DNA of 64,000 nt from assembly GCF_000026545.1 (NCBI RefSeq), contig NC_011601.1; one strand, given 5' to 3'. Position 1 is the stretch's first letter. Each line of letters begins with the position of its first letter. The notes under the pieces were generated by a model that ran no database searches, was not told the DNA's origin, and saw only the letters and a list, made by a program, of their open reading frames with translations. The DNA comes from Escherichia coli O127:H6 str. E2348/69 (GTDB taxonomy: Bacteria > Pseudomonadota > Gammaproteobacteria > Enterobacterales > Enterobacteriaceae). Position numbers and translations under genes: made by a program. Positions 1 through 41,770 of the stretch are shown piece after piece.

Positions 1-60
1 TTAAGCGAAGTCATCCACGAAGCAGCAATGGCCTTGAATAATAAAGCATTACACGGATAA
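1..60 (+). CDS. Possible 3' end of an upstream gene truncated by the window edge (frame 1 ends ...LSEVIHEAAMALNNKALHG, stop at 58-60)
   Basis: Open frame from position 1 to TAA at 58-60, 21 nt before the RBS/ATG of the next gene; too short to identify; a different frame also ends at 39-41. Confidence 0.25.
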   Translation, partial: LSEVIHEAAMALNNKALHG

Positions 61-81
61 CACATACCACTGAGGGAATAT

Positions 82-1251
82 ATGAATTTACATGAGTATC
101 AGGCCAAATCGTTACTGGCTGGCATGGGGATGCCGTGTCCAAAAGAGATAGCCATCCAACAGATTTCGCAACTGGCAGATGCCTGGCAACATATTGCTTG
201 CCCGAGTAAAGGCGCGGTACTTAAAGCGCAGGTACATGCTGGTGGGCGCGGTAAAGCTGGCGGCGTAAAAGTGCTTAAGCAGCTGCCGGAAGCACAGGCT
301 TTTGTACAGCAAATGTTGGGATCGCAACTGGTGACTTATCAGACCGGGCCAGAAGGACAGTATGTCAGCAGTATTTTACTGTGCGAAAACATTTATCCGG
401 TACGCCAGGAACTCTATTTTGGCATGGTGGTGGATCGTGAAAGCCAGCGGGTCACGTTTATTGTCAGCCCGGAAGGTGGTGTGGAAATTGAAAAAGTCGC
501 CCATGAGACACCGGAGAAAATCAGCAGTGTCAGCATTGATCCACTGACAGGCGTGCAGCCTTGCCATATCCGAGAAATGTTTGCTGTTCTGCAACTGGAA
601 CACGGACTATTTGCTGCCTTTAGTCGCCTGGTTAATCAGGCGTGGAAAGCCTTTAACGAACTGGATTTTGCCCTGCTGGAAATTAACCCTCTGGTGTTGC
701 GGGAAACGGGCGAATTTATGTGTGCAGACGCGAAAGTATCGCTGGATGATAACGCGCTGTATCGTCACCCGGAACTCCAGGTGCTACGTGATGAAACCCA
801 GGAAGATCCACGCGAAAGCCAGGCAGCGAAGCTTGATCTTAATTATGTCTCGCTGGACGGAAATATCGGCTGCATGGTCAATGGTGCAGGGCTGGCTATG
901 GCAACCATGGACATCATCAAGCTATACGGTGAACAACCCGCAAACTTCCTGGATGTTGGCGGTGGCGCAACCCAGGAGCGCGTCAGTGAAGCCTTTCGGC
1001 TGATTGTTTCCGACGGCAAAGTGAAAGCCATTCTGGTTAATATTTTTGGTGGGATTGTCCGTTGCGACATGATCGCCAGAGCCATTATTCATGCTCTGAA
1101 TGAGGCCCGTATCACCCTGCCTGTCGTGGTGCGTCTCTCCGGTAATAACGCTGCCGAAGGGCAGCGGTTACTGGCAGAAAGTGGCCTGACGGTGGAAGCC
1201 GTCAATTCTCTGGATGATGCCGCTAAACGCATCATTGCGTTACTGAATTAA
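82..1251 (+). CDS. Succinyl-CoA synthetase beta subunit paralogue (ADP-forming, SucC-like), accessory island
   Basis: 389 aa; N-terminus MNLHEYQAKSLLAGMGMP is the classic SucC start; ATP-grasp-like sequence throughout; GAGGGAA RBS upstream; immediately followed by a SucD-like gene. Confidence 0.9.
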   Translation: MNLHEYQAKSLLAGMGMPCPKEIAIQQISQLADAWQHIACPSKGAVLKAQVHAGGRGKAGGVKVLKQLPEAQAFVQQMLGSQLVTYQTGPEGQYVSSILLCENIYPVRQELYFGMVVDRESQRVTFIVSPEGGVEIEKVAHETPEKISSVSIDPLTGVQPCHIREMFAVLQLEHGLFAAFSRLVNQAWKAFNELDFALLEINPLVLRETGEFMCADAKVSLDDNALYRHPELQVLRDETQEDPRESQAAKLDLNYVSLDGNIGCMVNGAGLAMATMDIIKLYGEQPANFLDVGGGATQERVSEAFRLIVSDGKVKAILVNIFGGIVRCDMIARAIIHALNEARITLPVVVRLSGNNAAEGQRLLAESGLTVEAVNSLDDAAKRIIALLN

Positions 1252-1263
1252 CAGGAGGTTAAG

Positions 1264-2136
1264 ATGAGCGTTTTGATCAACAAACACACGCGGGTACTGG
1301 TGCAGGGCATTACCGGCAAAAACGGCACATTTCATACAGAGCAGGCTATTGCGTATGGCACGCAGATTGTGGGTGGAGTGACGCCAGGTAAGGGCGGGCA
1401 ACGGCATCTGGATCGCCCGGTTTTTGATTCAATGAAAGAAGCGATGCGACAAACTGAGGCTGATGCCAGCGTGATTTATGTGCCTGCACCGTTTGTGCTG
1501 GATTCTGTTGTTGAGGCTATTGAAGCTGGCGTCAAATTGGTTGTGGTGATCACTGAAGGTGTACCGACACTGGATATGGTGAAAGTTCGTCGGCTGCTTG
1601 ACTGCCACCCGGATGTGCGGCTGATTGGGCCAAACTGCCCAGGAGTTATCACGCCGGGTGAGTGCAAAATCGGGATTATGCCTGGTGAAATCCACCGCCC
1701 AGGGCGTATTGGGATTGTTTCCCGCTCCGGTACATTAACCTACGAAGCTGTAGCGCAAACCACGGCGCTGGGACTTGGGCAATCCACCTGTATTGGTATT
1801 GGCGGCGATCCGGTTCCGGGGACTAACTTTATTGATGCGCTGCGTTTATTCGAAAATGATCCGCAAACAGACGCGGTAATTATGATCGGTGAAATTGGTG
1901 GTAATGCGGAAGAACGGGCCGCGGAATTTATTCGTCATGAAATGAATAAACCGGTCGTAGGTTATATTGCCGGTGTTACTGCACCAAAAGGAAAACGCAT
2001 GGGACACGCCGGAGCCATTATTTCTGGCGGTAGCGGCAGTGCGGAGGATAAATTCCGGGCGTTCGATAAAGCAGGCATGGCATGGACACGAAATCCAGCA
2101 TTACTTGGCGAAACGTTATGGAATGTTATTAAGTAA
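1264..2136 (+). CDS. Succinyl-CoA synthetase alpha subunit paralogue (SucD-like)
   Basis: 290 aa; CoA-binding N-terminus ([15 protein letters not shown]) and phospho-histidine loop GHAGAII; AGGAGG RBS at 1254-1259; 12 nt after the beta subunit stop. Confidence 0.9.
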
Positions 2137-2153
2137 TCCATAAATGAATATCA

Positions 2154-2179
2154 AGGGAGCATATCGCTCCCTTTTTTTA
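2154..2179 (+). terminator. Rho-independent terminator after the sucCD-like pair
   Basis: GC hairpin (GGGAGC...GCTCCC) followed by a run of seven T. Confidence 0.55.
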
Positions 2180-2212
2180 TCTGTGTGGTAAGGGAATCAT
2201 CTTTTAATAACT

Positions 2213-2230
2213 GTGCGGAAAACCGCGCAT
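2213..2230. promoter_or_regulatory. Palindrome TGTGCGGAAAACCGCGCA, candidate enhancer (UAS) for a sigma-54 activator
   Basis: Near-perfect inverted repeat about 65 bp upstream of the sigma-54 -24 element at 2292; sigma-54 activator sites are typically palindromic and upstream. Confidence 0.3.
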
Positions 2231-2291
2231 AAAATAAAAAGGATAAATAGCTAACTCATTAAATAACAAAGCGTTATTAAAAAATTAAAGA

Positions 2292-2307
2292 TGGCATAGC
2301 TCCTGCA
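2292..2307 (+). promoter_or_regulatory. Sigma-54 (RpoN) -24/-12 promoter, TGGCAT-N5-CTGCA, for the transporter/dehydrogenase genes
   Basis: GG at 2293-2294 and GC at 2305-2306 with exact 10-nt spacing; about 40 bp upstream of the transporter start; a sigma-54 activator is encoded nearby (4921-6279). Confidence 0.55.
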
Positions 2308-2347
2308 ATAGCCAGGCAGGTTTTTTATTTTTCACAATGAGGTGAAT

Positions 2348-3847
2348 ATGTCATCAATATCCCATGGCGCACCACAAAAGCGTCGAATTATCCCTAATCC
2401 CGGCCTGTGGTTGGCGATCATTGCCGGAATTATTATTACCCTTCTGCCACTGGGCGATACCTTGCCCGTCGCCGGACAAAATATGATCGCCATTCTGGTG
2501 TTTGCCATTATTGTCTGGATCAGCGAAGCGATGGATTACACCGCCAGTGCAATTGTTATTTCCGCACTGATTATCTTTATGGTTGGTTTTGCCCCGGATA
2601 TGAATCACCCGGACACGATCCTTGGCACCGCGAAAGCGCTGAAAATGACTCTGTCGGGTTTTTCTAATTCTGCTCTGGCGCTGGTGGCAGCAGCAATGTT
2701 TATCGCGGCGGCAATGACCATTACCGGGCTGGATAAACGCATTGCGCTGTTTACTATGTCGAAAATAGGTGCCAGCAGCCGCAGCATTATTATCGGTGCC
2801 ATTGTGGTGACCATCGTCCTGAGCCTGGTCGTACCCAGTGCCACTGCCCGTACGGCTTGCGTGGTGCCGATTATGATGGGGGTCATTGCGGCATTTAAGG
2901 TGGATAAACATTCACGTTTAGCGGCGTCAATGATGATTGTTATCGCCCAGGCGACCAGTATCTGGAAAGTTGGTATTCAAACTTCGGCGGCGCAAAACCT
3001 GCTTTCTATCGGTTTTATCAATAAAACTTTCGGCGCCGGGCATTCTGTCAGCTGGCTTGACTGGCTGTTAGCGGGCGCGCCCTGGAGCCTCACCATGTCG
3101 GTGATCCTCTATTTCCTCGCACGTAAATTGTTGCCGCCAGAAACGGAAGCTGTTGAAGGGGGGAGCGAGGCCATTAAAAAAGCACTCGCAGAGTTAGGGC
3201 CAACCACCGGTAAAGAAAAACGCTTGATCGGTATTTCGCTGTTGTTACTGCTCTTTTGGTCTACTGGCGGAAAATTGCACAGTATTGATACCACCTCTGT
3301 CACCCTTGCCGGACTGGCGATTATGTTGCTGCCAGGCATCGGTGTAATGAGCTGGAAAGAGGTCGAAAAACGTGTGCAGTGGGGCACGTTGCTTATGTTT
3401 GGTATTGGTATCAGCCTGGGGTCCACGTTGCTTGATACACAGGCAGCTTCATGGATGGCGAACTATGTGGTGAAAGGTTTTGGTCTCGATGGCTTGCCAT
3501 CATTAGCCATCTTCGCGATTCTCGCCGCTTTCTTGATAATCATTCACCTGGGGTTTGCCAGTGCCACTGCGCTAACTGCCGCATTGCTGCCCATCCTGAT
3601 TAGCCTGTTAAGCAGTCTGCCGCCAGAACTCGGCGTTAACCCGGTCGGCATGACCATTCTGCTCGCCTTCAGTGTCAGTTTTGGCTTCATCCTGCCGATT
3701 AACGCGCCACAAAATATGGTGTGTATGGGTACGGATACCTTCACGCCACGCCAGTTTACCCGTGTGGGACTGTACCTGACGGTGATCGGCTACCTGTTGT
3801 TGCTACTGTTTGCCGCCACCTGGTGGAAAATTTTAGGTCTAATGTGA
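2348..3847 (+). CDS. Anion transporter, probably divalent anion:Na+ symporter (DASS/CitT-like) family; candidate alpha-ketoglutarate/dicarboxylate importer
   Basis: About 499 aa, highly hydrophobic with many predicted TM helices; ATG at 2348 preferred over in-frame GTG at 2342 (AGG RBS at 2340-2342); family assignment from overall resemblance, not a search. Confidence 0.75.
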   Translation: MSSISHGAPQKRRIIPNPGLWLAIIAGIIITLLPLGDTLPVAGQNMIAILVFAIIVWISEAMDYTASAIVISALIIFMVGFAPDMNHPDTILGTAKALKMTLSGFSNSALALVAAAMFIAAAMTITGLDKRIALFTMSKIGASSRSIIIGAIVVTIVLSLVVPSATARTACVVPIMMGVIAAFKVDKHSRLAASMMIVIAQATSIWKVGIQTSAAQNLLSIGFINKTFGAGHSVSWLDWLLAGAPWSLTMSVILYFLARKLLPPETEAVEGGSEAIKKALAELGPTTGKEKRLIGISLLLLLFWSTGGKLHSIDTTSVTLAGLAIMLLPGIGVMSWKEVEKRVQWGTLLMFGIGISLGSTLLDTQAASWMANYVVKGFGLDGLPSLAIFAILAAFLIIIHLGFASATALTAALLPILISLLSSLPPELGVNPVGMTILLAFSVSFGFILPINAPQNMVCMGTDTFTPRQFTRVGLYLTVIGYLLLLLFAATWWKILGLM

Positions 3848-3858
3848 GGAAACCAACG

Positions 3859-4932
3859 ATGTCATTACAAATTGCTGTTGAAAAAGTGCGTTGGTTAGCT
3901 GCCGGGCTGCTGGAACTTAATGGCTGTGATGCCGATATCGCTCAGGATGTGGCGGAACATATGATTGAAGCGGAACGTTATGGTTTTGCCAGCCACGGCG
4001 TCACGCTGCTACCGAAATATCTGGAAAATATCGCTCGTGGCGATGTAACCGCGAATGCCCGCCCGGAATGCTTAACAAGTGAAGGTAATTTACAACGTTT
4101 TCATGCCCACAATGGCTTTGGTCAACACGCCGGAAAAGTGGCGGTAAATGCTGCCATCGAACAAACAAAACACCGCGGTTTTTGCCTGTTAACGTTGTGC
4201 CATGCGCATCATTTAGGGCGTATGGGGCATTACGGGCAAATGGTTGCTGATCAAGGCCTGGCGATGCTGGCCATGAGTAACGTCACCGGGCGTCCGGCAC
4301 TGGTCGCCCCGTGGGGCGGTGCGGAACCGCGTATGACCACTAACCCTTTCTGCTTTGCCTGGCCGTTCAGTGATGGGCGTCCGCCGATTCTGGTTGATTT
4401 TGCCACCAGTAGCATGGCGCTAAATAAAGCACGGGTAATGTCGTCCACCGGGAAGCAGGCCGCGCCGGGACAATTGATCGATGCACAGGGGAATCCAAGC
4501 AATGATCCTGGGGTGTTATTCAGCAATCCTCCAGGGGCGTTACTGCCATTTGGTGAGCATAAAGGATTTGGCCTGGCACTGATGATTGAAATGATGGCGG
4601 GGATCTTATCTGGTGGTGACACGATCGCCGAAGATCATCAGACGGATGGATCTGCGCATAATCATCTTTTTGCGTTGATTATCGATCCTGATCAATTCAC
4701 CGATCTGGCAGGGGAGAAAGGGCAGTTCTTTGCGGATTATCTGTTAGCTACGCAGCCTCAACCTGGCGGCAATCCGGTGATTTACCCCGGTATGCCAGAA
4801 GCTGCCAACCGGGAACGCAATGCGAAGATGATTACGATCCCGGTATCATTCTGGTCCTGGGTAGTTGAACATTACGCCCGCAAAGGTATCGATTTGGGGT
4901 TACATCCTCAGGAATCAGCATTAGCTGGATGA
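3859..4932 (+). CDS. Ldh2-family (malate/L-lactate/ureidoglycolate dehydrogenase-like) NAD(P)-dependent oxidoreductase
   Basis: 357 aa from ATG 3859, with GAGGAA RBS 9 nt upstream and 11 nt after the transporter stop; the track ORF 3721-4932 has an N-terminal extension overlapping the transporter and is rejected; conserved HGxxxxPKY-type region (FASHGVTLLPKY). Confidence 0.75.
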   Translation: MSLQIAVEKVRWLAAGLLELNGCDADIAQDVAEHMIEAERYGFASHGVTLLPKYLENIARGDVTANARPECLTSEGNLQRFHAHNGFGQHAGKVAVNAAIEQTKHRGFCLLTLCHAHHLGRMGHYGQMVADQGLAMLAMSNVTGRPALVAPWGGAEPRMTTNPFCFAWPFSDGRPPILVDFATSSMALNKARVMSSTGKQAAPGQLIDAQGNPSNDPGVLFSNPPGALLPFGEHKGFGLALMIEMMAGILSGGDTIAEDHQTDGSAHNHLFALIIDPDQFTDLAGEKGQFFADYLLATQPQPGGNPVIYPGMPEAANRERNAKMITIPVSFWSWVVEHYARKGIDLGLHPQESALAG

Positions 4933-6279
4933 TTCTGGTCGATAAACTTGCGGTTGAATCTGATGTTTGTTGAGTTTGTCATATAAAGTCTTGCGCGGCA
5001 GCTGTAATAGCCGCGCTGTCAAACTGACCTGGCCTTCCGTTTGTCGCAGCATATCTTCGATTAACTTTTTCTCGAAAGCATCAATGCAGGCGGTAAGGCC
5101 ACTCTCTTCTTGCTGAGTCATTGGTACTGGCTGGTGGTGGGTCAGTAAACCGAGAACAAAACGCTCTGCATTGTGTTTAAGTTCACGTACATTGCCAGGC
5201 CAACTTTGTGACTGCAACCAGGCCAGTAACATGGGAGAAATATCAGGCAGAGGACGATTATATTTTTGTGCCGCCTGACTGGCGAACCAGTAAAACAGTT
5301 CAGGGATATCTTCTCGTCGTTGGCGTAGAGGTGGAATATTCAGGCTAACCACATTCAGACGATAATAGAGATCGAGACGAAACAGATGTTCTTCGCTGCG
5401 ACGCAGTAAATCTTCCTTGGTCGCTGCAATAACACGGCAATTCACCGGAATTAATTGATTGGCACCTAATCGTTCAATGGTTCTTTCCTGCAATACACGT
5501 AGCAGTTTTACCTGCATTCCTGATGGCATTCCCTCTATTTCATCGAGAAATAACGTACCACCATTTGCATGTTCAATTTTTCCAATACGCTTTTTAACCG
5601 CACCGGTAAATGCGCCCGCCTCATGACCAAATATTTCGCTTTCAAACAACGTTTCTGGTAAGCCTGCACAGTTTAAGGCAACAAACTGCCCCTGACGGCG
5701 GGTACTCCAGTGATGCAGCATTCTGGCGACGACTTCTTTACCACAACCTGTTTCACCATAAATAAGGACATCGGCACCGGTATCTGCGACATTAAGGATC
5801 ATTTTACGCAGTTGTTGCATCTGCGGACTACGACCAATCAGCACCGGGCCATTTTCCTGTTGCAGATTCGCCAGTAATTGCTGATTTTCTAAAACCAATC
5901 GCCGTTTTTCTACCGCTCTGGCAATAATACTCAATAATTTATCTGAGCTACTTGGTTTCTCAATGAAATCGAATGCACCATTACGCATGGCATCCACCGC
6001 CATTTCCACGTCACCGTGTCCGGTAATTAAAATAACCGGAATTTTGCTATCCATTTCGTTGATGTAACTGAGGAGCTCTAGTCCTGATATTCCAGGTAAC
6101 CTGACATCGGTCAGTATAATAATGTTGGCCTGACTTTGAATAAGGGGAATACTGTGTTCTGCATCGCAACAGGAAATAACACGATAACCAGCCAGCGTGA
6201 GCGTTTGTTCACAGGCAAAACGTACATCGTCACTATCCTCAATATAAACTATAGTAATTTCACTGGATTTATTATTCAT
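4921..6279 (-). CDS. kguR: Sigma-54-dependent response regulator (NtrC family: receiver + AAA+ sigma-54 activator + HTH); consistent with KguR
   Basis: 452 aa; receiver domain with conserved D (IIILTDVRLPG); Walker A GETGCGKE; GAFTGA sigma-54 contact motif; C-terminal HTH; stop overlaps the 3' end of the convergent dehydrogenase gene. Confidence 0.8.
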   Translation of the reverse strand: MNNKSSEITIVYIEDSDDVRFACEQTLTLAGYRVISCCDAEHSIPLIQSQANIIILTDVRLPGISGLELLSYINEMDSKIPVILITGHGDVEMAVDAMRNGAFDFIEKPSSSDKLLSIIARAVEKRRLVLENQQLLANLQQENGPVLIGRSPQMQQLRKMILNVADTGADVLIYGETGCGKEVVARMLHHWSTRRQGQFVALNCAGLPETLFESEIFGHEAGAFTGAVKKRIGKIEHANGGTLFLDEIEGMPSGMQVKLLRVLQERTIERLGANQLIPVNCRVIAATKEDLLRRSEEHLFRLDLYYRLNVVSLNIPPLRQRREDIPELFYWFASQAAQKYNRPLPDISPMLLAWLQSQSWPGNVRELKHNAERFVLGLLTHHQPVPMTQQEESGLTACIDAFEKKLIEDMLRQTEGQVSLTARLLQLPRKTLYDKLNKHQIQPQVYRPESSS

Positions 6280-10003: not shown

Positions 10004-12826
10004 TTACAGCATCGGCTTGAGGAAGCGCGCCGTATGCGAAGCTTCGCACTCTGCGACGGTTTCTGGCGTACCGGAGACGAGGATTTCGCCGCCCCCACTG
10101 CCGCCTTCCGGTCCCAGGTCGACAATCCAGTCAGCGGTTTTGATCACGTCGAGATTGTGCTCAATTACCACAATGGTATTGCCCTGATCGCGCAGTTTAT
10201 GCAGTACGTCGAGCAGTTGCTGAATATCGGCGAAGTGCAGACCGGTGGTCGGCTCGTCGAGAATATACAGCGTCTGCCCGGTGCCGCGTTTTGACAGCTC
10301 ACGCGCCAGCTTCACGCGCTGGGCTTCACCACCAGAAAGTGTGGTTGCGGACTGCCCGAGGCGAATGTACGTCAGGCCAACATCCATCAGCGTTTGCAGC
10401 TTACGCGCCAGAGCTGGCACCGCATCAAAGAACTCACGCGCCTCTTCGATGGTCATATCCAGCACTTCGTGGATGGTTTTGCCTTTGTACTTAATCTCCA
10501 GCGTTTCACGGTTATAGCGTTTGCCTTTGCACTGGTCGCACGGTACGTAAATGTCCGGCAGGAAGTGCATCTCCACTTTGATCACGCCGTCGCCCTGACA
10601 GGCCTCGCAGCGTCCGCCACGGACGTTAAAGCTGAAACGTCCTGGCGTATAGCCGCGCGCACGGGATTCCGGTACGCCCGCAAACAGTTCGCGCACAGGT
10701 GTAAACACGCCGGTATAGGTCGCCGGGTTAGAACGAGGAGTACGACCAATTGGGCTTTGGTCGATATCGATCACTTTATCGAAATGCTCCAGTCCCTGAA
10801 TATCGCGATACGGTGCCGGTTCGGCGATGGTCGCACCATTCAACTGGCGTTGGGCAATCGGGAACAGTGTGTCGTTAATCAGCGTGGATTTACCGGAACC
10901 CGAAACCCCAGTAATACAGGTAAACAGACCAACTGGCAGCGTTAGCGTCACATCTTTCAGGTTGTTGCCGCGTGCGCCCGTCAGTTTCAGCACTTTTTCC
11001 GGATTTGCCGGAACGCGTTTCTTCGGCACTTCAATCTTGCGTTTACCGCTCATGTACTGCCCGGTCAACGACTCAGGCACCGCCATAATTGCTTCCAGTG
11101 GACCTTCCGCGACCACTTCACCGCCGTGAACACCCGCACCCGGACCGATATCGATCACATGATCAGCGGCGCGAATCGCGTCTTCGTCGTGCTCCACCAC
11201 AATCACGGTATTACCGAGATCGCGCAGATGGATAAGCGTACCCAACAGGCGCTCGTTATCGCGCTGGTGCAGGCCGATAGACGGCTCATCCAGCACGTAC
11301 ATCACGCCAACCAGGCCTGCACCAATCTGGCTCGCCAGACGAATACGCTGGGCTTCACCGCCGGAAAGTGTCTCTGCCGAGCGGGAAAGTGTCAGGTAAT
11401 TCAGGCCGACGTTAACGAGGAATTTCAGACGATCGCCGATCTCTTTAAGGATTTTTTCTGCAATCTTCGCCCGCTGACCTGCGAGTTTGAGATTGTTGAA
11501 GAATTCCATCGCATGACCGATGCTCATGTCGGAGATGGCGGGCAGCGGCGTATTCTCGACATACACGTGGCGTGCTTCCCGACGCAGACGGGTTCCTTCG
11601 CAGCTGGCGCACGGACGATTGCTGATAAACTTGGCTAATTCTTCACGTACCGCACTGGATTCCGTCTCTTTATAACGGCGCTCCATATTGTGCAGCACGC
11701 CTTCGAACGGATGACGACGAATGGAGGTATCGCCACGATCGTTCATGTATTTGAATTCAATATTTTCTTTGCCAGAACCGTACAACACCACTTTATGCAC
11801 GTTCGCGCTCAGGCTGCCCCACGGCGCTTCGACGTCGAACTTATAGTGATCTGCCAGCGATTTCAGCATCTGGAAATAATAGAAGTTGCGGCGATCCCAG
11901 CCACGGATCGCACCGCCAGCCAGCGACAATTCCGGATTCTGGATCACGCGGTCAGGATCGAAATATTGCTGTACGCCAAGACCGTCACAGGTCGGGCAGG
12001 CTCCCGCCGGGTTGTTAAATGAAAACAGGCGAGGTTCCAGCTCGCGCATACTGTAACCGCAAATCGGGCAGGCAAAGTTGGCGGAGAACAGCAGCTCTTC
12101 CGCTTTCGGGTCGTCCATATCCGCCACTACCGCGGTACCACCGGAAAGCTCCAGCGCGGTTTCAAACGACTCGGCAAGACGTTGGGTAAGATCGTCACGC
12201 ACTTTGAAGCGATCAACCACCACTTCAATGGTATGTTTCTTTTGCAGTTCCAGTTTCGGCGGATCGGAAAGATCGCAGACTTCGCCATCAATACGAGCAC
12301 GGATGTAACCCTGGCTTGCCAGGTTCTCCAGCGTTTTGGTGTGTTCGCCTTTGCGCTCTTTAATGATTGGCGCGAGCAGCATCAGACGCTTGCCTTCCGG
12401 CTGGGACAACACGTTATCCACCATCTGACTGACGGTTTGCGCCGCCAGCGGTACATCGTGGTCCGGGCAGCGTGGCTCACCAACGCGAGCGTACAGCAGA
12501 CGCAAATAGTCGTGGATTTCGGTGATTGTCCCCACCGTAGAGCGCGGGTTATGAGACGTCGATTTCTGCTCAATTGAGATGGCAGGAGAAAGCCCTTCAA
12601 TATGGTCGACGTCCGGCTTCTCCATCAGTGACAGAAACTGCCGCGCGTAGGCGGAAAGGGATTCAACGTAACGGCGCTGCCCTTCGGCATATAAGGTGTC
12701 GAAAGCGAGCGAGGATTTGCCAGAACCCGAAAGCCCGGTCACGACAATAAGCTTGTCGCGGGGGATAACGAGGTTGATGTTTTTGAGATTATGGGTGCGG
12801 GCGCCCCGAACTTCGATCTTATCCAT
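10004..12826 (-). CDS. uvrA: Excinuclease ABC subunit A (UvrA)
   Basis: 940 aa; N-terminus [19 protein letters not shown]; two ABC ATPase modules and zinc-finger cysteines. Confidence 0.97.
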
Positions 12827-12909
12827 TCACCTTTCCCGGATTAAACGCTTTTTTGCCCGGTGGCATGGTGCTACCGGCGATCACAAACGGTTAATTATGA
12901 CACAAATTG

Positions 12910-12929
12910 ACCTGAATGAATATACAGTA
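12910..12929. promoter_or_regulatory. LexA (SOS) box shared by divergent uvrA and ssb promoters
   Basis: ACCTGAATGAATATACAGTA, i.e. CTG-N10-CAG with AT-rich centre; lies in the uvrA-ssb divergent intergenic region. Confidence 0.75.
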
Positions 12930-13080
12930 TTGGAATGCATTACCCGGAGTGTTGTGTAACAATGTCTGGCCAGGTTTGTTTCCCGGAACCGAGGTCACAA
13001 CATAGTAAAAGCGCTATTGGTAATGGTACAATCGCGCGTTTACACTTATTCAGAACGATTTTTTTTCAGGAGACACGAAC

Positions 13081-13617
13081 ATGGCCAGCAGAGGCGTAAA
13101 CAAGGTTATTCTCGTTGGTAATCTGGGTCAGGACCCGGAAGTACGCTACATGCCAAATGGTGGCGCAGTTGCCAACATTACGCTGGCTACTTCCGAATCC
13201 TGGCGTGATAAAGCGACCGGCGAGATGAAAGAGCAGACTGAATGGCACCGCGTTGTGCTGTTCGGCAAACTGGCAGAAGTGGCCAGCGAATATCTGCGTA
13301 AAGGTTCTCAGGTTTATATCGAAGGCCAGCTGCGTACCCGCAAATGGACCGATCAATCCGGTCAGGATCGCTACACCACAGAAGTCGTGGTGAACGTTGG
13401 CGGCACCATGCAGATGTTGGGTGGTCGTCAGGGTGGTGGCGCTCCTGCAGGTGGCAATATCGGTGGTGGTCAGCCGCAGGGCGGTTGGGGTCAGCCTCAG
13501 CAGCCGCAGGGTGGCAATCAGTTCAGCGGCGGCGCGCAGTCTCGCCCGCAGCAGTCCGCTCCGGCAGCGCCGTCTAACGAGCCGCCGATGGACTTTGATG
13601 ACGATATTCCGTTCTGA
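13081..13617 (+). CDS. ssb: Single-stranded DNA-binding protein SSB
   Basis: 178 aa; [28 protein letters not shown]... with Gly/Gln-rich tail and C-terminal DFDDDIPF. Confidence 0.97.
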
Positions 13618-16423: not shown

Positions 16424-16888
16424 ATGGAAAAGAAATTACCCCGCATTAAAGCGCTGCTAACCCCCGGCGAAGTGGCGAAACGCAGCGGTGTGGCGGTATC
16501 GGCGCTGCATTTCTATGAAAGCAAAGGGTTGATTACCAGTATCCGTAATAGCGGCAATCAGCGGCGATATAAACGTGATGTGTTGCGATATGTCGCAATT
16601 ATCAAAATTGCTCAGCGTATTGGCATTCCGCTCGCAACCATTCGTGAAGCGTTTGGCGTGTTGCCAGAAGGGCATACGTTAAGTGCGAAAGAGTGGAAAC
16701 AGCTTTCGTCCCAATGGCGAGAAGAGTTGGATCGGCGCATTCATACCTTAGTGGCGCTGCGTGACGAACTGGATGGATGTATTGGTTGTGGCTGCCTTTC
16801 GCGCAGTGATTGCCCGTTGCGTAACCCGGGCGACCGATTAGGAGAAGAAGGTACCGGCGCACGCTTACTGGAAGATGAACAAAACTAA
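16424..16888 (+). CDS. soxR: Redox-sensing [2Fe-2S] MerR-family regulator SoxR
   Basis: 154 aa; MerR HTH N-terminus and C-terminal [12 protein letters not shown] cluster-binding motif. Confidence 0.97.
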
Positions 16889-17021
16889 AGCGCCACAAGG
16901 GCGCTTTAGTTTGTTTTCCGGTCTTTGTCTTTCTCTCTATCCCGCTGGTACACAGGAGGGTTTCCCCCGACGTCAACACACCTCATTCGAGCACGTGGTG
17001 GAGGTTCCGGTTGGTGTTGAT
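16882..17021 (-). ncRNA. ryjA: Candidate small RNA RyjA/SraL, antisense to and overlapping the soxR 3' end
   Basis: K-12 has an sRNA of about 140 nt here from memory; a TACAAT -10-like hexamer on the minus strand at 17033-17028; hairpin + T-run at 16887-16917 serves as a shared terminator; boundaries approximate. Confidence 0.4.
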
Positions 17022-22708: not shown

Positions 22709-22918
22709 GCCGAATGTAGGCCGGATAAGGCGTTATACGCCGCATCCGGCAATCAATGCCGGATGCGACGCTGTCGCGTCTTATCAGGCCTACAGCCGTT
22801 GCCGAATGTAGGCCGGATAAGGCGTTCACGCCGCATCCGGCAACCAGCGCCTGATGCGCCGCTGTCGCGTCTTATCAGGCCTACAAACCGTTACCGACTC
22901 GCATCCGGCAATTGTGGG
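22709..22918. repeat. REP/BIME cluster: two tandem units of about 92 bp plus a partial third
   Basis: Repeated GCCGAATGTAGGCCGGATAAGGCGTT...CGCATCCGGCAA...CTTATCAGGCCTAC palindromic units between yjcH and acs. Confidence 0.9.
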
Positions 22919-25143: not shown

Positions 25144-25262
25144 ATTCACAGTGTGGTTATTTGTTACACATAGGGGCGAGCAATGTCATGACAGTGTAGG
25201 TGCGGTTACTGTCGTGAAAAACAATAAAAACCGCCATTGCAACAATGGCGCAATTCGGATGA

Positions 25263-26705
<1,443 letters not shown>

Positions 26706-37679: not shown

Positions 37680-39248
37680 TTATTTGGTTACCTGATCAAA
37701 CCAGACCATATCGGCATTCAACCCTTGTTGATACCCCTGCACATTATCACGCATGACAATTTGCGTTTTGCCTTGATCAATAAAGACATACGGGGAACTA
37801 CGTTGTAGTTCTTGTTGCATTTTCTTATACAAATCAAGACGTTTAGCGCTATCAGGTTCAGCGATGGCCGCCAGCGTTTCTTTGTTCAGTTCCGGGATTT
37901 TCCAGCCGTTTAACCCGGCAACGGTGCTGGATTTGCCATCGTTATAGGCGAAAGAGCTGGCGTTGGAATGTGCGTCAAAATAATCAGGCAACCACATACG
38001 AATGGCCCCCTGATGCTGGTGGGCGCGAACGCGAGAGTAGACCTGACTCCCTGCGGCTGGCAGCAAATCAACTTTTACACCGCCCTGAGCAAAGCTGGCC
38101 TGAATTGACTGCGCGATGGTAATAAATGGCGGTTTATTTTCGACATCAAGCGTGAAGTGCGGGTCTTTGATTCCGGCTTTAGCGAGGATCTCTTTTGCTT
38201 TGGCTGGATTAAAGGTAAACGGTGTTTCTTCCAGTGCTCCAGGAAAGCCCACGGGCAGGAAACTTTGATGGGTAAAATATTGTCCTTTTAAGAGATTTTT
38301 GGTGATGCCGTCGTAATCGACCAACCAGCGAGCGGCCTCCCAGAACGCAGGATTACTCATCAGCGGGTTATCCTTGTTACCGGTATTGAAGGCCAGGTAG
38401 TTCTGTTCGGCGGAGGCAATGCTCATCACTTTTACGCCAGGTTTACCCTGTAATGCATCGATTTGATCGGCTCCCAGATCACGAGCCATATCAGCATCAC
38501 CTTGTTGGATCAGCAGGCGACGCGTTGCCGGATCGGGAACATTTTTGATGATGACGTTTTTCAGTTTCGGGGCGCCGGTTGGTGAGCTGGCGTTGGCTTC
38601 CATCACGATGGCCTGATGCGGTTGGTAAGTACGCATTTTAAACGCGCCGCTGCCAGCGGAATGCATCTTCAGCCATTCATTACCAAAGTCGTTATTTTTG
38701 GCGTTTGGCGCAACCAGCTTCTCGTCAACAATTGAGGCGATTGGTGTGGAGAGAATATTCAGTGCCAGCGCCGGGCTGACGTCGGCACTCCATTGCACCT
38801 GGACGGTATGGTCATCGATTTTCTTCAACTGGCTGGCGATATTTTCCGGCTGCCATCCCAGCACATTGAGAATAAACGCACCGGATTTATTCAGTGTGAC
38901 AGCCCGGACATAAGAGTAAATCACATCTTCCGGGCGTACCGGATTACCAGAGGCAAATTTCGCATCGCTTTTCAGTTTTATGGTTAGCGTTTTGGCTGCT
39001 GGGTCAGCCTGCCAACTTTCCGCCAGAATCGGAGTGATTTTCGTCGGATCATTACGGTCCGGTTGTACTACGCGTTGATACAGACTTGGTACAGTCTGAA
39101 TACTTGAGAGTTCATTAGCTTCTGCCGGGTCCAGACTCACAATATCATCCAGTCCCTGGGCTACAACCAACGTATTAGGCGGTGTAGCGGCAACGGTTGT
39201 GGCGGAAATTGTGCTTAAAACCAGTAAAGGTAATAGTTTTTTAATCAT
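37680..39248 (-). CDS. Periplasmic substrate-binding protein, family 5 (peptide/nickel/opine type)
   Basis: 522 aa; signal peptide MIKKLLPLLVLSTISATTVAA; size and composition typical of DppA/OppA-like proteins; clearly not NikA-like at the N-terminus. Confidence 0.8.
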   Translation of the reverse strand: MIKKLLPLLVLSTISATTVAATPPNTLVVAQGLDDIVSLDPAEANELSSIQTVPSLYQRVVQPDRNDPTKITPILAESWQADPAAKTLTIKLKSDAKFASGNPVRPEDVIYSYVRAVTLNKSGAFILNVLGWQPENIASQLKKIDDHTVQVQWSADVSPALALNILSTPIASIVDEKLVAPNAKNNDFGNEWLKMHSAGSGAFKMRTYQPHQAIVMEANASSPTGAPKLKNVIIKNVPDPATRRLLIQQGDADMARDLGADQIDALQGKPGVKVMSIASAEQNYLAFNTGNKDNPLMSNPAFWEAARWLVDYDGITKNLLKGQYFTHQSFLPVGFPGALEETPFTFNPAKAKEILAKAGIKDPHFTLDVENKPPFITIAQSIQASFAQGGVKVDLLPAAGSQVYSRVRAHQHQGAIRMWLPDYFDAHSNASSFAYNDGKSSTVAGLNGWKIPELNKETLAAIAEPDSAKRLDLYKKMQQELQRSSPYVFIDQGKTQIVMRDNVQGYQQGLNADMVWFDQVTK

Positions 39249-39622: not shown

Positions 39623-41770
39623 TTACGCCAGTGCCGCTTCGCGCAGGCGAGTTTTCAACTTGTTGTACTCGTCAATCACGTACTGCTCGGCGGCGCGCTG
39701 ATCGGCGATCGGCTCGACGCGCACGGCGCAGTATTTGTATTCCGGCGTTTTCGTAATCGGGCTTAAGTTTTCGGTAACCAGCTCGTTACAGGCACCAATC
39801 CACCACTGGTAGGTCATGTAAATCGCCCCTTTGTTCGGACGATCGCTGACCTGCGCACGGGTGATAATTTTGCCTTTACGCGAGTGCACCCAAACCAATG
39901 CCTCATCTTCAATACCCAGACGTTTGGCGTCTTCGGTATTGATTTGTGCGTAGCCAGGTTCATCAGCCAGCGCCGCCAGTGCCGCACAGTTACCGGTCAT
40001 CGAACGGCAAGAGTAGTGACCAACTTCACGCACCGTTGACAGTACCATCGGGTACTCGTCGGTGAGTTTGTCGATTGGCGCGACCCAGTCGCAGGTGAAG
40101 AACTGCGCCAGACCGTTCGGGGTATCAAACTTCTCTTTAAACAGATAAGAAGTCCCCTGATCGGCATCTGAAGTATCCCGGCAAGGCCACTGAATGAAGC
40201 CCAGTTCGCCCATTTTTTCGTAAGTCGCACCGTAGAAATCCGGGCACAGATGACGCAACTCATCCCAGATCTCCTGGGTGTTGTTGTAGTGCATCGGATA
40301 ACCCATACGGGTGGCGATTTCACTGATAATCTGCCAGTCCGTTTTCAGATCCCATTTCGGTTCAACCGCTTTGAAGAAACGCTGGAAGCCACGGTCAGCC
40401 GCAGTAAACACGCCTTCATGCTCGCCCCACGACGTTGACGGTAAAATAACATCCGCCGCCGACGCGGTTTTGGTCATAAAGATGTCCTGAACGATGACCA
40501 GTTCCAGATCTTCAAAGGCTTTACGTACTGCCGACAGCTCCGCGTCAGTTTGCAGCGGATCTTCGCCCATAATGTACGCGGCACGCACTTCGCCATGCGC
40601 TGCGCGGTGCGGCAGCTCGCTGATGCGATAGCCGGTATGAGCAGGCAGGCTTTCCACGCCCCAGGCTTTGGCGAATTTCTCGCGGTTAGCCGGATCTTTC
40701 ACGTACTGGTATCCCGGATACGTATCCGGCAGCGCGCCCATATCGCAGGCACCCTGCACGTTGTTCTGACCACGAACCGGGTTTACACCCGCATGCGGCT
40801 TACCGAGGTTACCAGTCAGCATCGCGAGGCTGGTCAGAGAACGCACGGTTTCCACGCCCTGGTAGAACTGGGTTACACCCATGCCCCACAGGATGGCGGC
40901 GCTTTTCGCCTGGGCATACATCCGCGCCGCCTGACGAATCTCACTGGCGCTGACGCCGGTGATATCTTCAACCGACTCCGGCGTGTAGCCTTCAACGATT
41001 TTACGATACTCTTCAAAGCCTTCTGTACGGGAAGCGACGAAAGCTTTGTCGTACAGGTTTTCTTCAATAATGACATGGCCCATCGCATTCAACAGCGCGA
41101 TGTTCGAGCCGTTTTTCAGTGCAATGTGCATGTCAGCAATGCGCGCGGTTTCAATTTTGCGCGGATCGCAGACGATAATTTTCGCCCCGTTACGTTTAGC
41201 GTTAATTACGTGATTCGCCACGATTGGGTGGGAATCCGCCGGGTTGTACCCGAAAACGAACACTAAATCGGTATTATCAATTTCGTTAATAGCATTGCTC
41301 ATTGCGCCATTACCGACCGATTGGTGCAGACCTGCAACCGATGGGCCGTGTCAGACACGAGCGCAGCAGTCAACGTTATTGGTACCAATAACGGCGCGCG
41401 CAAATTTTTGCATTACATAGTTGGTTTCGTTACCCGTACCACGCGAGGAGCCGGTCGTCTGGATGGCATCCGGACCGTACTTCTCTTTGATGGCGCTCAG
41501 GCGCTCGGCAACGTAATTCAGTGCCTCATCCCAGGAAACAGGTTCGAGTTTGCCGCCACGCTGGCGACGGATCATGGGGGTTTTCAGGCGCGGGGTCAGG
41601 ATCTGGGTATCGTTAATGAAATCCCAGCCATAATAACCCTTCAGACACAGGGTACCCTGGTTGGTTTTCCCCTGCGCTGCCTCCGCCCGGACGATTTTGC
41701 CGTTATCGACGACCAGGTTGATTTTGCAACCTGATGCGCAATAGGGGCAAACCGTGACGACTTTTTTCAT
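39623..41770 (-). CDS. fdhF: Formate dehydrogenase H (FdhF), selenocysteine-containing molybdoenzyme
   Basis: 715 codons with in-frame TGA at 41351-41353 (codon 140, selenocysteine); the two track ORFs 41351-41770 and 39623-41302 are one gene; N-terminal Fe-S cysteines CPYCASGC. Confidence 0.95.
41305..41350 (-). other. SECIS mRNA hairpin directing selenocysteine insertion at the fdhF UGA
   Basis: Minus-strand sequence immediately 3' of the UGA reads CACGGCCCATCGGTTGCAGGTCTGCACCAATCGGTCGG, a stem-loop matching the fdhF SECIS as I remember it. Confidence 0.8.

Follow-up and report, generated by a model that had tools for sequence, protein, structure and literature searches.

The best-described system with which this locus can be compared is the uvrA/ssb SOS box of Escherichia coli K-12, a LexA operator lying between two divergent genes (Brandsma et al. 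1983/1985; Fernandez de Henestrosa et al. 2000). The uvrA box is given as ACTGTATATTCATTCAGG in Table 7 of PMC3009722, and its heterology index (HI) was published as 6.98 (Fernandez de Henestrosa et al. 2000, as quoted in a citing paper) and also as 6.2 (PMC11228462). The box overlaps the −35 element of the uvrA promoter (PMC9505508), and ssb was described as having three promoters, only the most distal of which is LexA-repressible (according to PMC9505508, citing Brandsma 1983/1985 and Fernandez de Henestrosa 2000). By RNA-seq, uvrA was induced 3.9-fold with a lexA dependence of 4.4-fold, whereas the corresponding values for ssb were 1.5-fold and 1.0-fold, respectively (PMC11228462). By RT-qPCR, the induction of ssb was found to be SOS-dependent, its response to UV and gamma irradiation being abolished in lexA3, and ssb was overexpressed in a constitutive-SOS mutant; in normal growth, its expression was the same in the wild type and in lexA3 (PMC9505508). 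As related in a citing paper, ssb induction went undetected in three microarray studies and in radioimmunoassays, and the gene fusions of Brandsma 1983 were SOS-regulated, but on a multicopy plasmid. ChIP evidence for LexA binding at uvrA/ssb was sought in the literature, with nothing directly useful returned. The uvrA promoter fragment has also been used in the reporter plasmid pJMuvrA-PAmCherry-mCI, and the system was revisited in papers from 2022–2024. In Salmonella enterica, a LexA box shared by uvrA and ssb was reported with an HI of 6.99, and both genes were classed as LexA-independent in basal expression (PMC8072944).

The window analysed here, a 64-kb stretch of the chromosome of E. 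coli O127:H6 str. E2348/69, carries at positions 12910–12929 the 20-mer ACCTGAATGAATATACAGTA, whose reverse complement on the uvrA strand, TACTGTATATTCATTCAGGT, contains the published ACTGTATATTCATTCAGG. The triplets CTG (12912–12914) and CAG (12925–12927) are separated by exactly 10 nt and delimit a core palindrome at 12912–12927, with A or T at nine of the ten positions of the spacer AATGAATATA. The site, which is assigned to neither strand, lies in the non-coding gap of 254 bp (12827–13080) between uvrA (10004–12826, minus strand, 940 aa), the main regulated gene, and its divergent neighbour ssb (13081–13617, plus strand, 178 aa), both taken from the list of open reading frames and corresponding to b4058 and b4059 of K-12; uvrA starts at 12826 and ssb at 13081. 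The original prediction had placed a CTG-N10-CAG signature in the uvrA-ssb intergenic region about 85 bp from the uvrA start codon, and its coordinates and sequence proved correct: the measured distance is 84 bp, with 171 bp to the start codon of ssb, and the site falls outside coding sequence. The comparison with the K-12 operator, which had also been proposed, returned the same 20-mer, the same genes and the same start-codon distances (84 and 171 bp), with no difference within the box. The whole gap is identical to that of MG1655 but for one extra T, 130 bp from the box, in the T-run preceding the ssb ribosome-binding site (AGGAG, 13068–13072, plus strand, with GGAGA invariant in the 17-species alignment). 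This T-run (13059–13066) has eight T in the window and seven in MG1655. The difference is probably a common length polymorphism, many E. coli gaps matching over 253 rather than 254 bases, although the direct alignment of the run covered only K-12 and one divergent strain. Judged by its sequence, the site is base for base the published uvrA/ssb SOS box, described from 1983 on, and contains nothing new. It has all the sequence-level features that define an E. coli-type LexA box, while LexA binding and lexA-dependent expression are taken from the literature. With sequence, matrix score, K-12 identity, the published box and conservation considered together, we hold with high confidence that 12910–12929 is the LexA operator in the region that controls the divergent uvrA and ssb genes of E. 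coli. The main lesson is that a textbook regulatory site could be recognised from the raw sequence alone.

The CTG-N10-CAG pattern by itself is weak evidence and a poor discriminator: it occurs 26 times in the window, where 13.1 ± 3.8 occurrences would be expected, and these matches are almost all G+C-rich and intragenic. A search with the ideal palindrome TACTGTATATATATACAGTA, in which up to three mismatches were allowed, gave no match; it was too strict as a test, since the real box has five mismatches to TACTG(TA)5CAGTA. A symmetrised weight matrix was therefore derived from 18 further LexA boxes of E. coli (Table 4 of PMC3009722, from which uvrA is absent). The scoring against a LexA matrix that the original prediction had suggested gave 17.0 bits, the highest value of all positions in the window, followed by 12.8 and 11.5 bits. 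This score lies in the range of proven sites: five of the 18 boxes in the matrix (ftsK, uvrD, dinB, dinG and polB) score lower in a leave-one-out test. The HI computed from the same matrix was 9.2 on the uvrA strand, a value that derives from a different site set and is not comparable with the published 6.98 and 6.2, so the rank among known sites was used instead. In first-order Markov sequences of 64 kb, 17.0 bits was reached in 3 of 200, which corresponds to an expectation of roughly 0.015 × 254/64,000, or about 6e-5, for this 254-bp gap. The two runners-up are AATTGTGCTTAAAACCAGTA at 39207–39226 (12.8 bits, within the open reading frame 37680–39248) and TACTGTCGTGAAAAACAATA at 25207–25226 (11.5 bits, 43 bp upstream of a 478-aa open reading frame starting at 25269). 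Both were rejected as LexA sites and ascribed to chance, since their scores fall in the range of the null maximum (10.7 ± 2.5 bits) and each has only one intact half-site.

Conservation was evaluated by a contig scan for which the conserved N-terminal part of SSB, rather than the box, served as anchor, and which yielded 120 loci. Among these, the Enterobacterales comparison comprised 16 loci with uvrA and ssb adjacent and divergent across gaps of 214–400 bp. The best matrix match in the gap was the orthologous site in all 16 (11.7–18.9 bits), and no other position of any of these loci attained its score. In a MAFFT alignment, a conserved island at about 12887–12936, formed by the box together with the neighbouring ATTATGACAC block, showed 76–91% identity to the window, whereas most of the remaining gap showed 23–60%, the exceptions being the first 10 bp by the uvrA start, a TGnTACAAT island at 13024–13032 and the ribosome-binding site. 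CTG and CAG were invariant in 17 of 17 Enterobacterales sequences, and substitutions within the box fell mostly at positions of low information in the LexA matrix (Spearman rho 0.47, P 0.035). At 12915, a non-consensus A, which gives CTGA and not CTGT and thus a weaker half-site, was likewise present in all 17. This suggests that the imperfect half-site may itself be under constraint.

Within E. coli, 5425 of the 5426 complete genomes have a match to the 254-bp gap, with at least 99% identity in 5410 of 5426 matching records, and 5395 of the 5426 genomes contain a mismatch-free stretch of 28 nt or more from 12910–12939. One mismatch within 12900–12939 was seen in 737 of 5420 E. coli records. 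Four variant genomes were sampled, and their changes (12909 G>A, 12939 A>C and 12940 T>A) lie just outside the box, the 20-mer being intact in all four. A 94-kb record labelled E. coli 'plasmid p009_C' (NZ_CP048307.1) carries at 1–6263 a truncated uvrA, the LexA box, ssb, yjcB, pdeC, soxS and soxR; this region is a chromosomal segment, to be explained by misassembly or else by excision or duplication. Plasmid-labelled occurrences of such a segment number four in the genome collection.

A standard sigma-70 promoter and terminator scan of 12700–13200 under a 9-of-12 rule returned no site. This rule misses extended −10 promoters, and a lenient scan that admits them was used instead; promoters in the gap emerged only under it. 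On the minus strand, an extended −10 element of uvrA, TGTCATAAT, was predicted at 12894–12902, in keeping with the near invariance of the ATTATGACAC block in the 17 Enterobacterales, together with a −35 element, TATTCA, at 12917–12922 inside the LexA box and separated from the −10 by a 17-bp spacer; transcription would start near 12887. This predicted geometry agrees with the overlap of box and −35 described in PMC9505508. On the plus strand, a candidate distal, LexA-repressible ssb promoter spans 12897–12926, with a putative −35 ATGACA at 12897–12902 and a −10 within the box, which may be GAATAT at 12918–12923 (lenient scan) or TATACA at 12921–12926 (by eye). A candidate middle promoter with an extended −10, TGTAACAAT, at 12955–12963 is kept in close relatives only. 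The extended −10 of a candidate proximal, constitutive promoter, TGGTACAAT, at 13024–13032 exceeds the middle element in conservation, the initial TA of its hexamer being invariant and the rest largely conserved in the Enterobacterales. The three plus-strand candidates would correspond to the three published ssb promoters, with hexamers and start sites that we infer from the scan.

These elements are consistent with the following mode of action. In the undamaged cell, a LexA dimer would occupy the imperfect palindrome CTG-N10-CAG and, since the box overlaps the uvrA −35, would hinder RNA polymerase, so that uvrA is kept at a moderate basal level. When DNA is damaged, LexA cleaves itself under the stimulus of RecA filaments formed on single strands, the operator empties and uvrA expression rises about four-fold. 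On the other strand, the box would overlap the −10 and spacer region of the most distal ssb promoter, so that this promoter would be derepressed too. The two downstream ssb promoters, LexA-independent and constitutive, would provide most of the ssb mRNA, and the net effect of the SOS response on ssb would thus be small. The middling quality of the box (five mismatches and a published HI of about 6–7) fits substantial basal expression and a modest induction of both genes. In this way the site would determine the level of UvrA, which senses damage in nucleotide excision repair, both under basal conditions and after damage, and would add a small SOS-dependent component to the supply of SSB.

The alternative that survives best is that the box functions as an operator of uvrA only, its proximity to ssb being a by-product of gene order in the Enterobacterales and the SOS response of ssb negligible or indirect. 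The RNA-seq values, with a weak induction of ssb and a lexA dependence of 1.0-fold beside the clear response of uvrA, point in this direction, as do the equal ssb levels of wild type and lexA3 in normal growth and the older microarrays and immunoassays, which are cited as showing no ssb induction. In addition, the distance from the box to the ssb start codon is 171 bp, and two promoter-like elements that are better conserved lie nearer to the gene. Further evidence came from five Vibrio species, in which a strong LexA box (20.7–24.3 bits) was found 63–144 bp upstream of uvrA, whereas no LexA box was present within 400 bp of ssb in any of the five loci, nothing there scoring above 6.2 bits. In these genomes, ssb is 2 kb away, and two genes on the uvrA strand, galU (judged from its N-terminal sequence) and a gene of 215 aa, separate uvrA from ssb. 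It is thus uvrA, rather than ssb, that the box accompanies, and LexA control of ssb is not conserved outside the Enterobacterales, which helps to explain why SOS induction of ssb proved hard to demonstrate. Against a box serving uvrA only stand the RT-qPCR induction of ssb by UV and gamma irradiation and its loss in lexA3, the overexpression of ssb in the constitutive-SOS mutant, the SOS-regulated gene fusions of Brandsma 1983 (known through a citing paper and obtained on a multicopy plasmid) and the candidate plus-strand promoter with its −10 inside the box. As a view of physiological significance this alternative is reasonable, though we consider it less likely than not, and it leaves the identity of the site unchanged. 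The word 'shared' in the original prediction holds for the position of the box and for the distal ssb promoter, while the regulatory effect is asymmetric, clear on uvrA and weak on ssb.

Returning to an operator that acts on both genes, we put forward, tentatively and with less than even confidence, that ssb came under LexA control in certain lineages only, as a by-product of gene order. Ancestrally, the box would have been a uvrA operator, as in Vibrio, and its overlap with a distal ssb promoter would have arisen only where the two genes are immediate neighbours, as they are in the Enterobacterales. The invariant CTGA at 12912–12915 would then reflect selection for an intermediate LexA affinity or a dual-promoter constraint, and not drift.

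A second alternative regards the conserved block as the core promoter elements of uvrA (and of ssb) or as the site of another regulator, with CTG-N10-CAG being incidental. The conserved island does include the predicted extended −10 of uvrA and a −35-like hexamer, Figure 1 of PMC9505508 shows an ArcA site in this region, and the bare pattern is common, with its 26 copies in the window. However, conservation within the island tracks the LexA motif, with both triplets invariant and variation confined mainly to low-information positions; a matrix derived without the site gives it a score like those of proven LexA boxes; Vibrio uvrA has different flanks and yet a stronger LexA box; and lexA-dependent induction of uvrA is documented (PMC11228462). 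This explanation was consequently judged very improbable. The notion of a functionless, SOS-box-like string that arose by chance, to which the frequency of the bare pattern and the three random sequences of 200 that attained the score might lend some colour, has a negligible probability and is refuted by conservation (in all 16 Enterobacterales orthologues and, over 28 nt or more without a mismatch, in nearly every E. coli genome) and by the published expression data, apart from the low expectation of such a score in this gap and the identity of the site with an experimentally studied box.

Rfam matches were also observed elsewhere in the window. The Hfq-binding sRNA sraL was matched at 16881–17021 (minus strand, 153 bits), and two tandem matches to naRNA4 (CssrE), a nucleoid-associated non-coding RNA family, lie at 22719–22790 and 22811–22881 (plus strand). 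The bacterial selenocysteine insertion element SECIS_2 was matched at 41304–41358 (minus strand, 87 bits), and a selenoprotein gene is thereby implied on the minus strand there.

Beyond the Enterobacterales and Vibrio, no E. coli-type box was found in the uvrA-ssb gap of the scanned loci of Pseudoalteromonas, most Shewanella, Marinobacterium, SAR86 and Halieaceae, the exceptions being Pseudoalteromonas sp. SMS1 (21.6 bits) and Parashewanella (17.5 bits). In six loci of Shewanella and Pseudoalteromonas, uvrA and ssb are divergent and 1.5–2.3 kb apart; in the same six loci, the surroundings of uvrA yielded no LexA box of the E. coli type, the best scores being 3–10 bits.

Among the described systems besides K-12 itself, the locus resembles that of Salmonella enterica, which has the same divergent layout, a shared box and a near-identical HI (6.99 against 6.98). 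The distances tabulated for Salmonella (80 for uvrA and 24 for ssb; PMC8072944) apparently use other reference points, and the box was compared by description. The nlhH/higB-2 region of Salmonella, also compared by description, likewise has one LexA box between divergent genes, but the genes differ. The uvrA box of Vibrio resembles the present one in its CTG-N10-CAG pattern, its A/T-rich spacer and its position shortly upstream of uvrA; it is nearer to the consensus (20.7–24.3 bits against 17.0 bits in E. coli) and, unlike the E. coli box, is not shared with ssb. The shared status of the box thus appears to be specific to lineages in which uvrA and ssb abut, and this is the sole, small addition made here to what was known of the K-12 operator.
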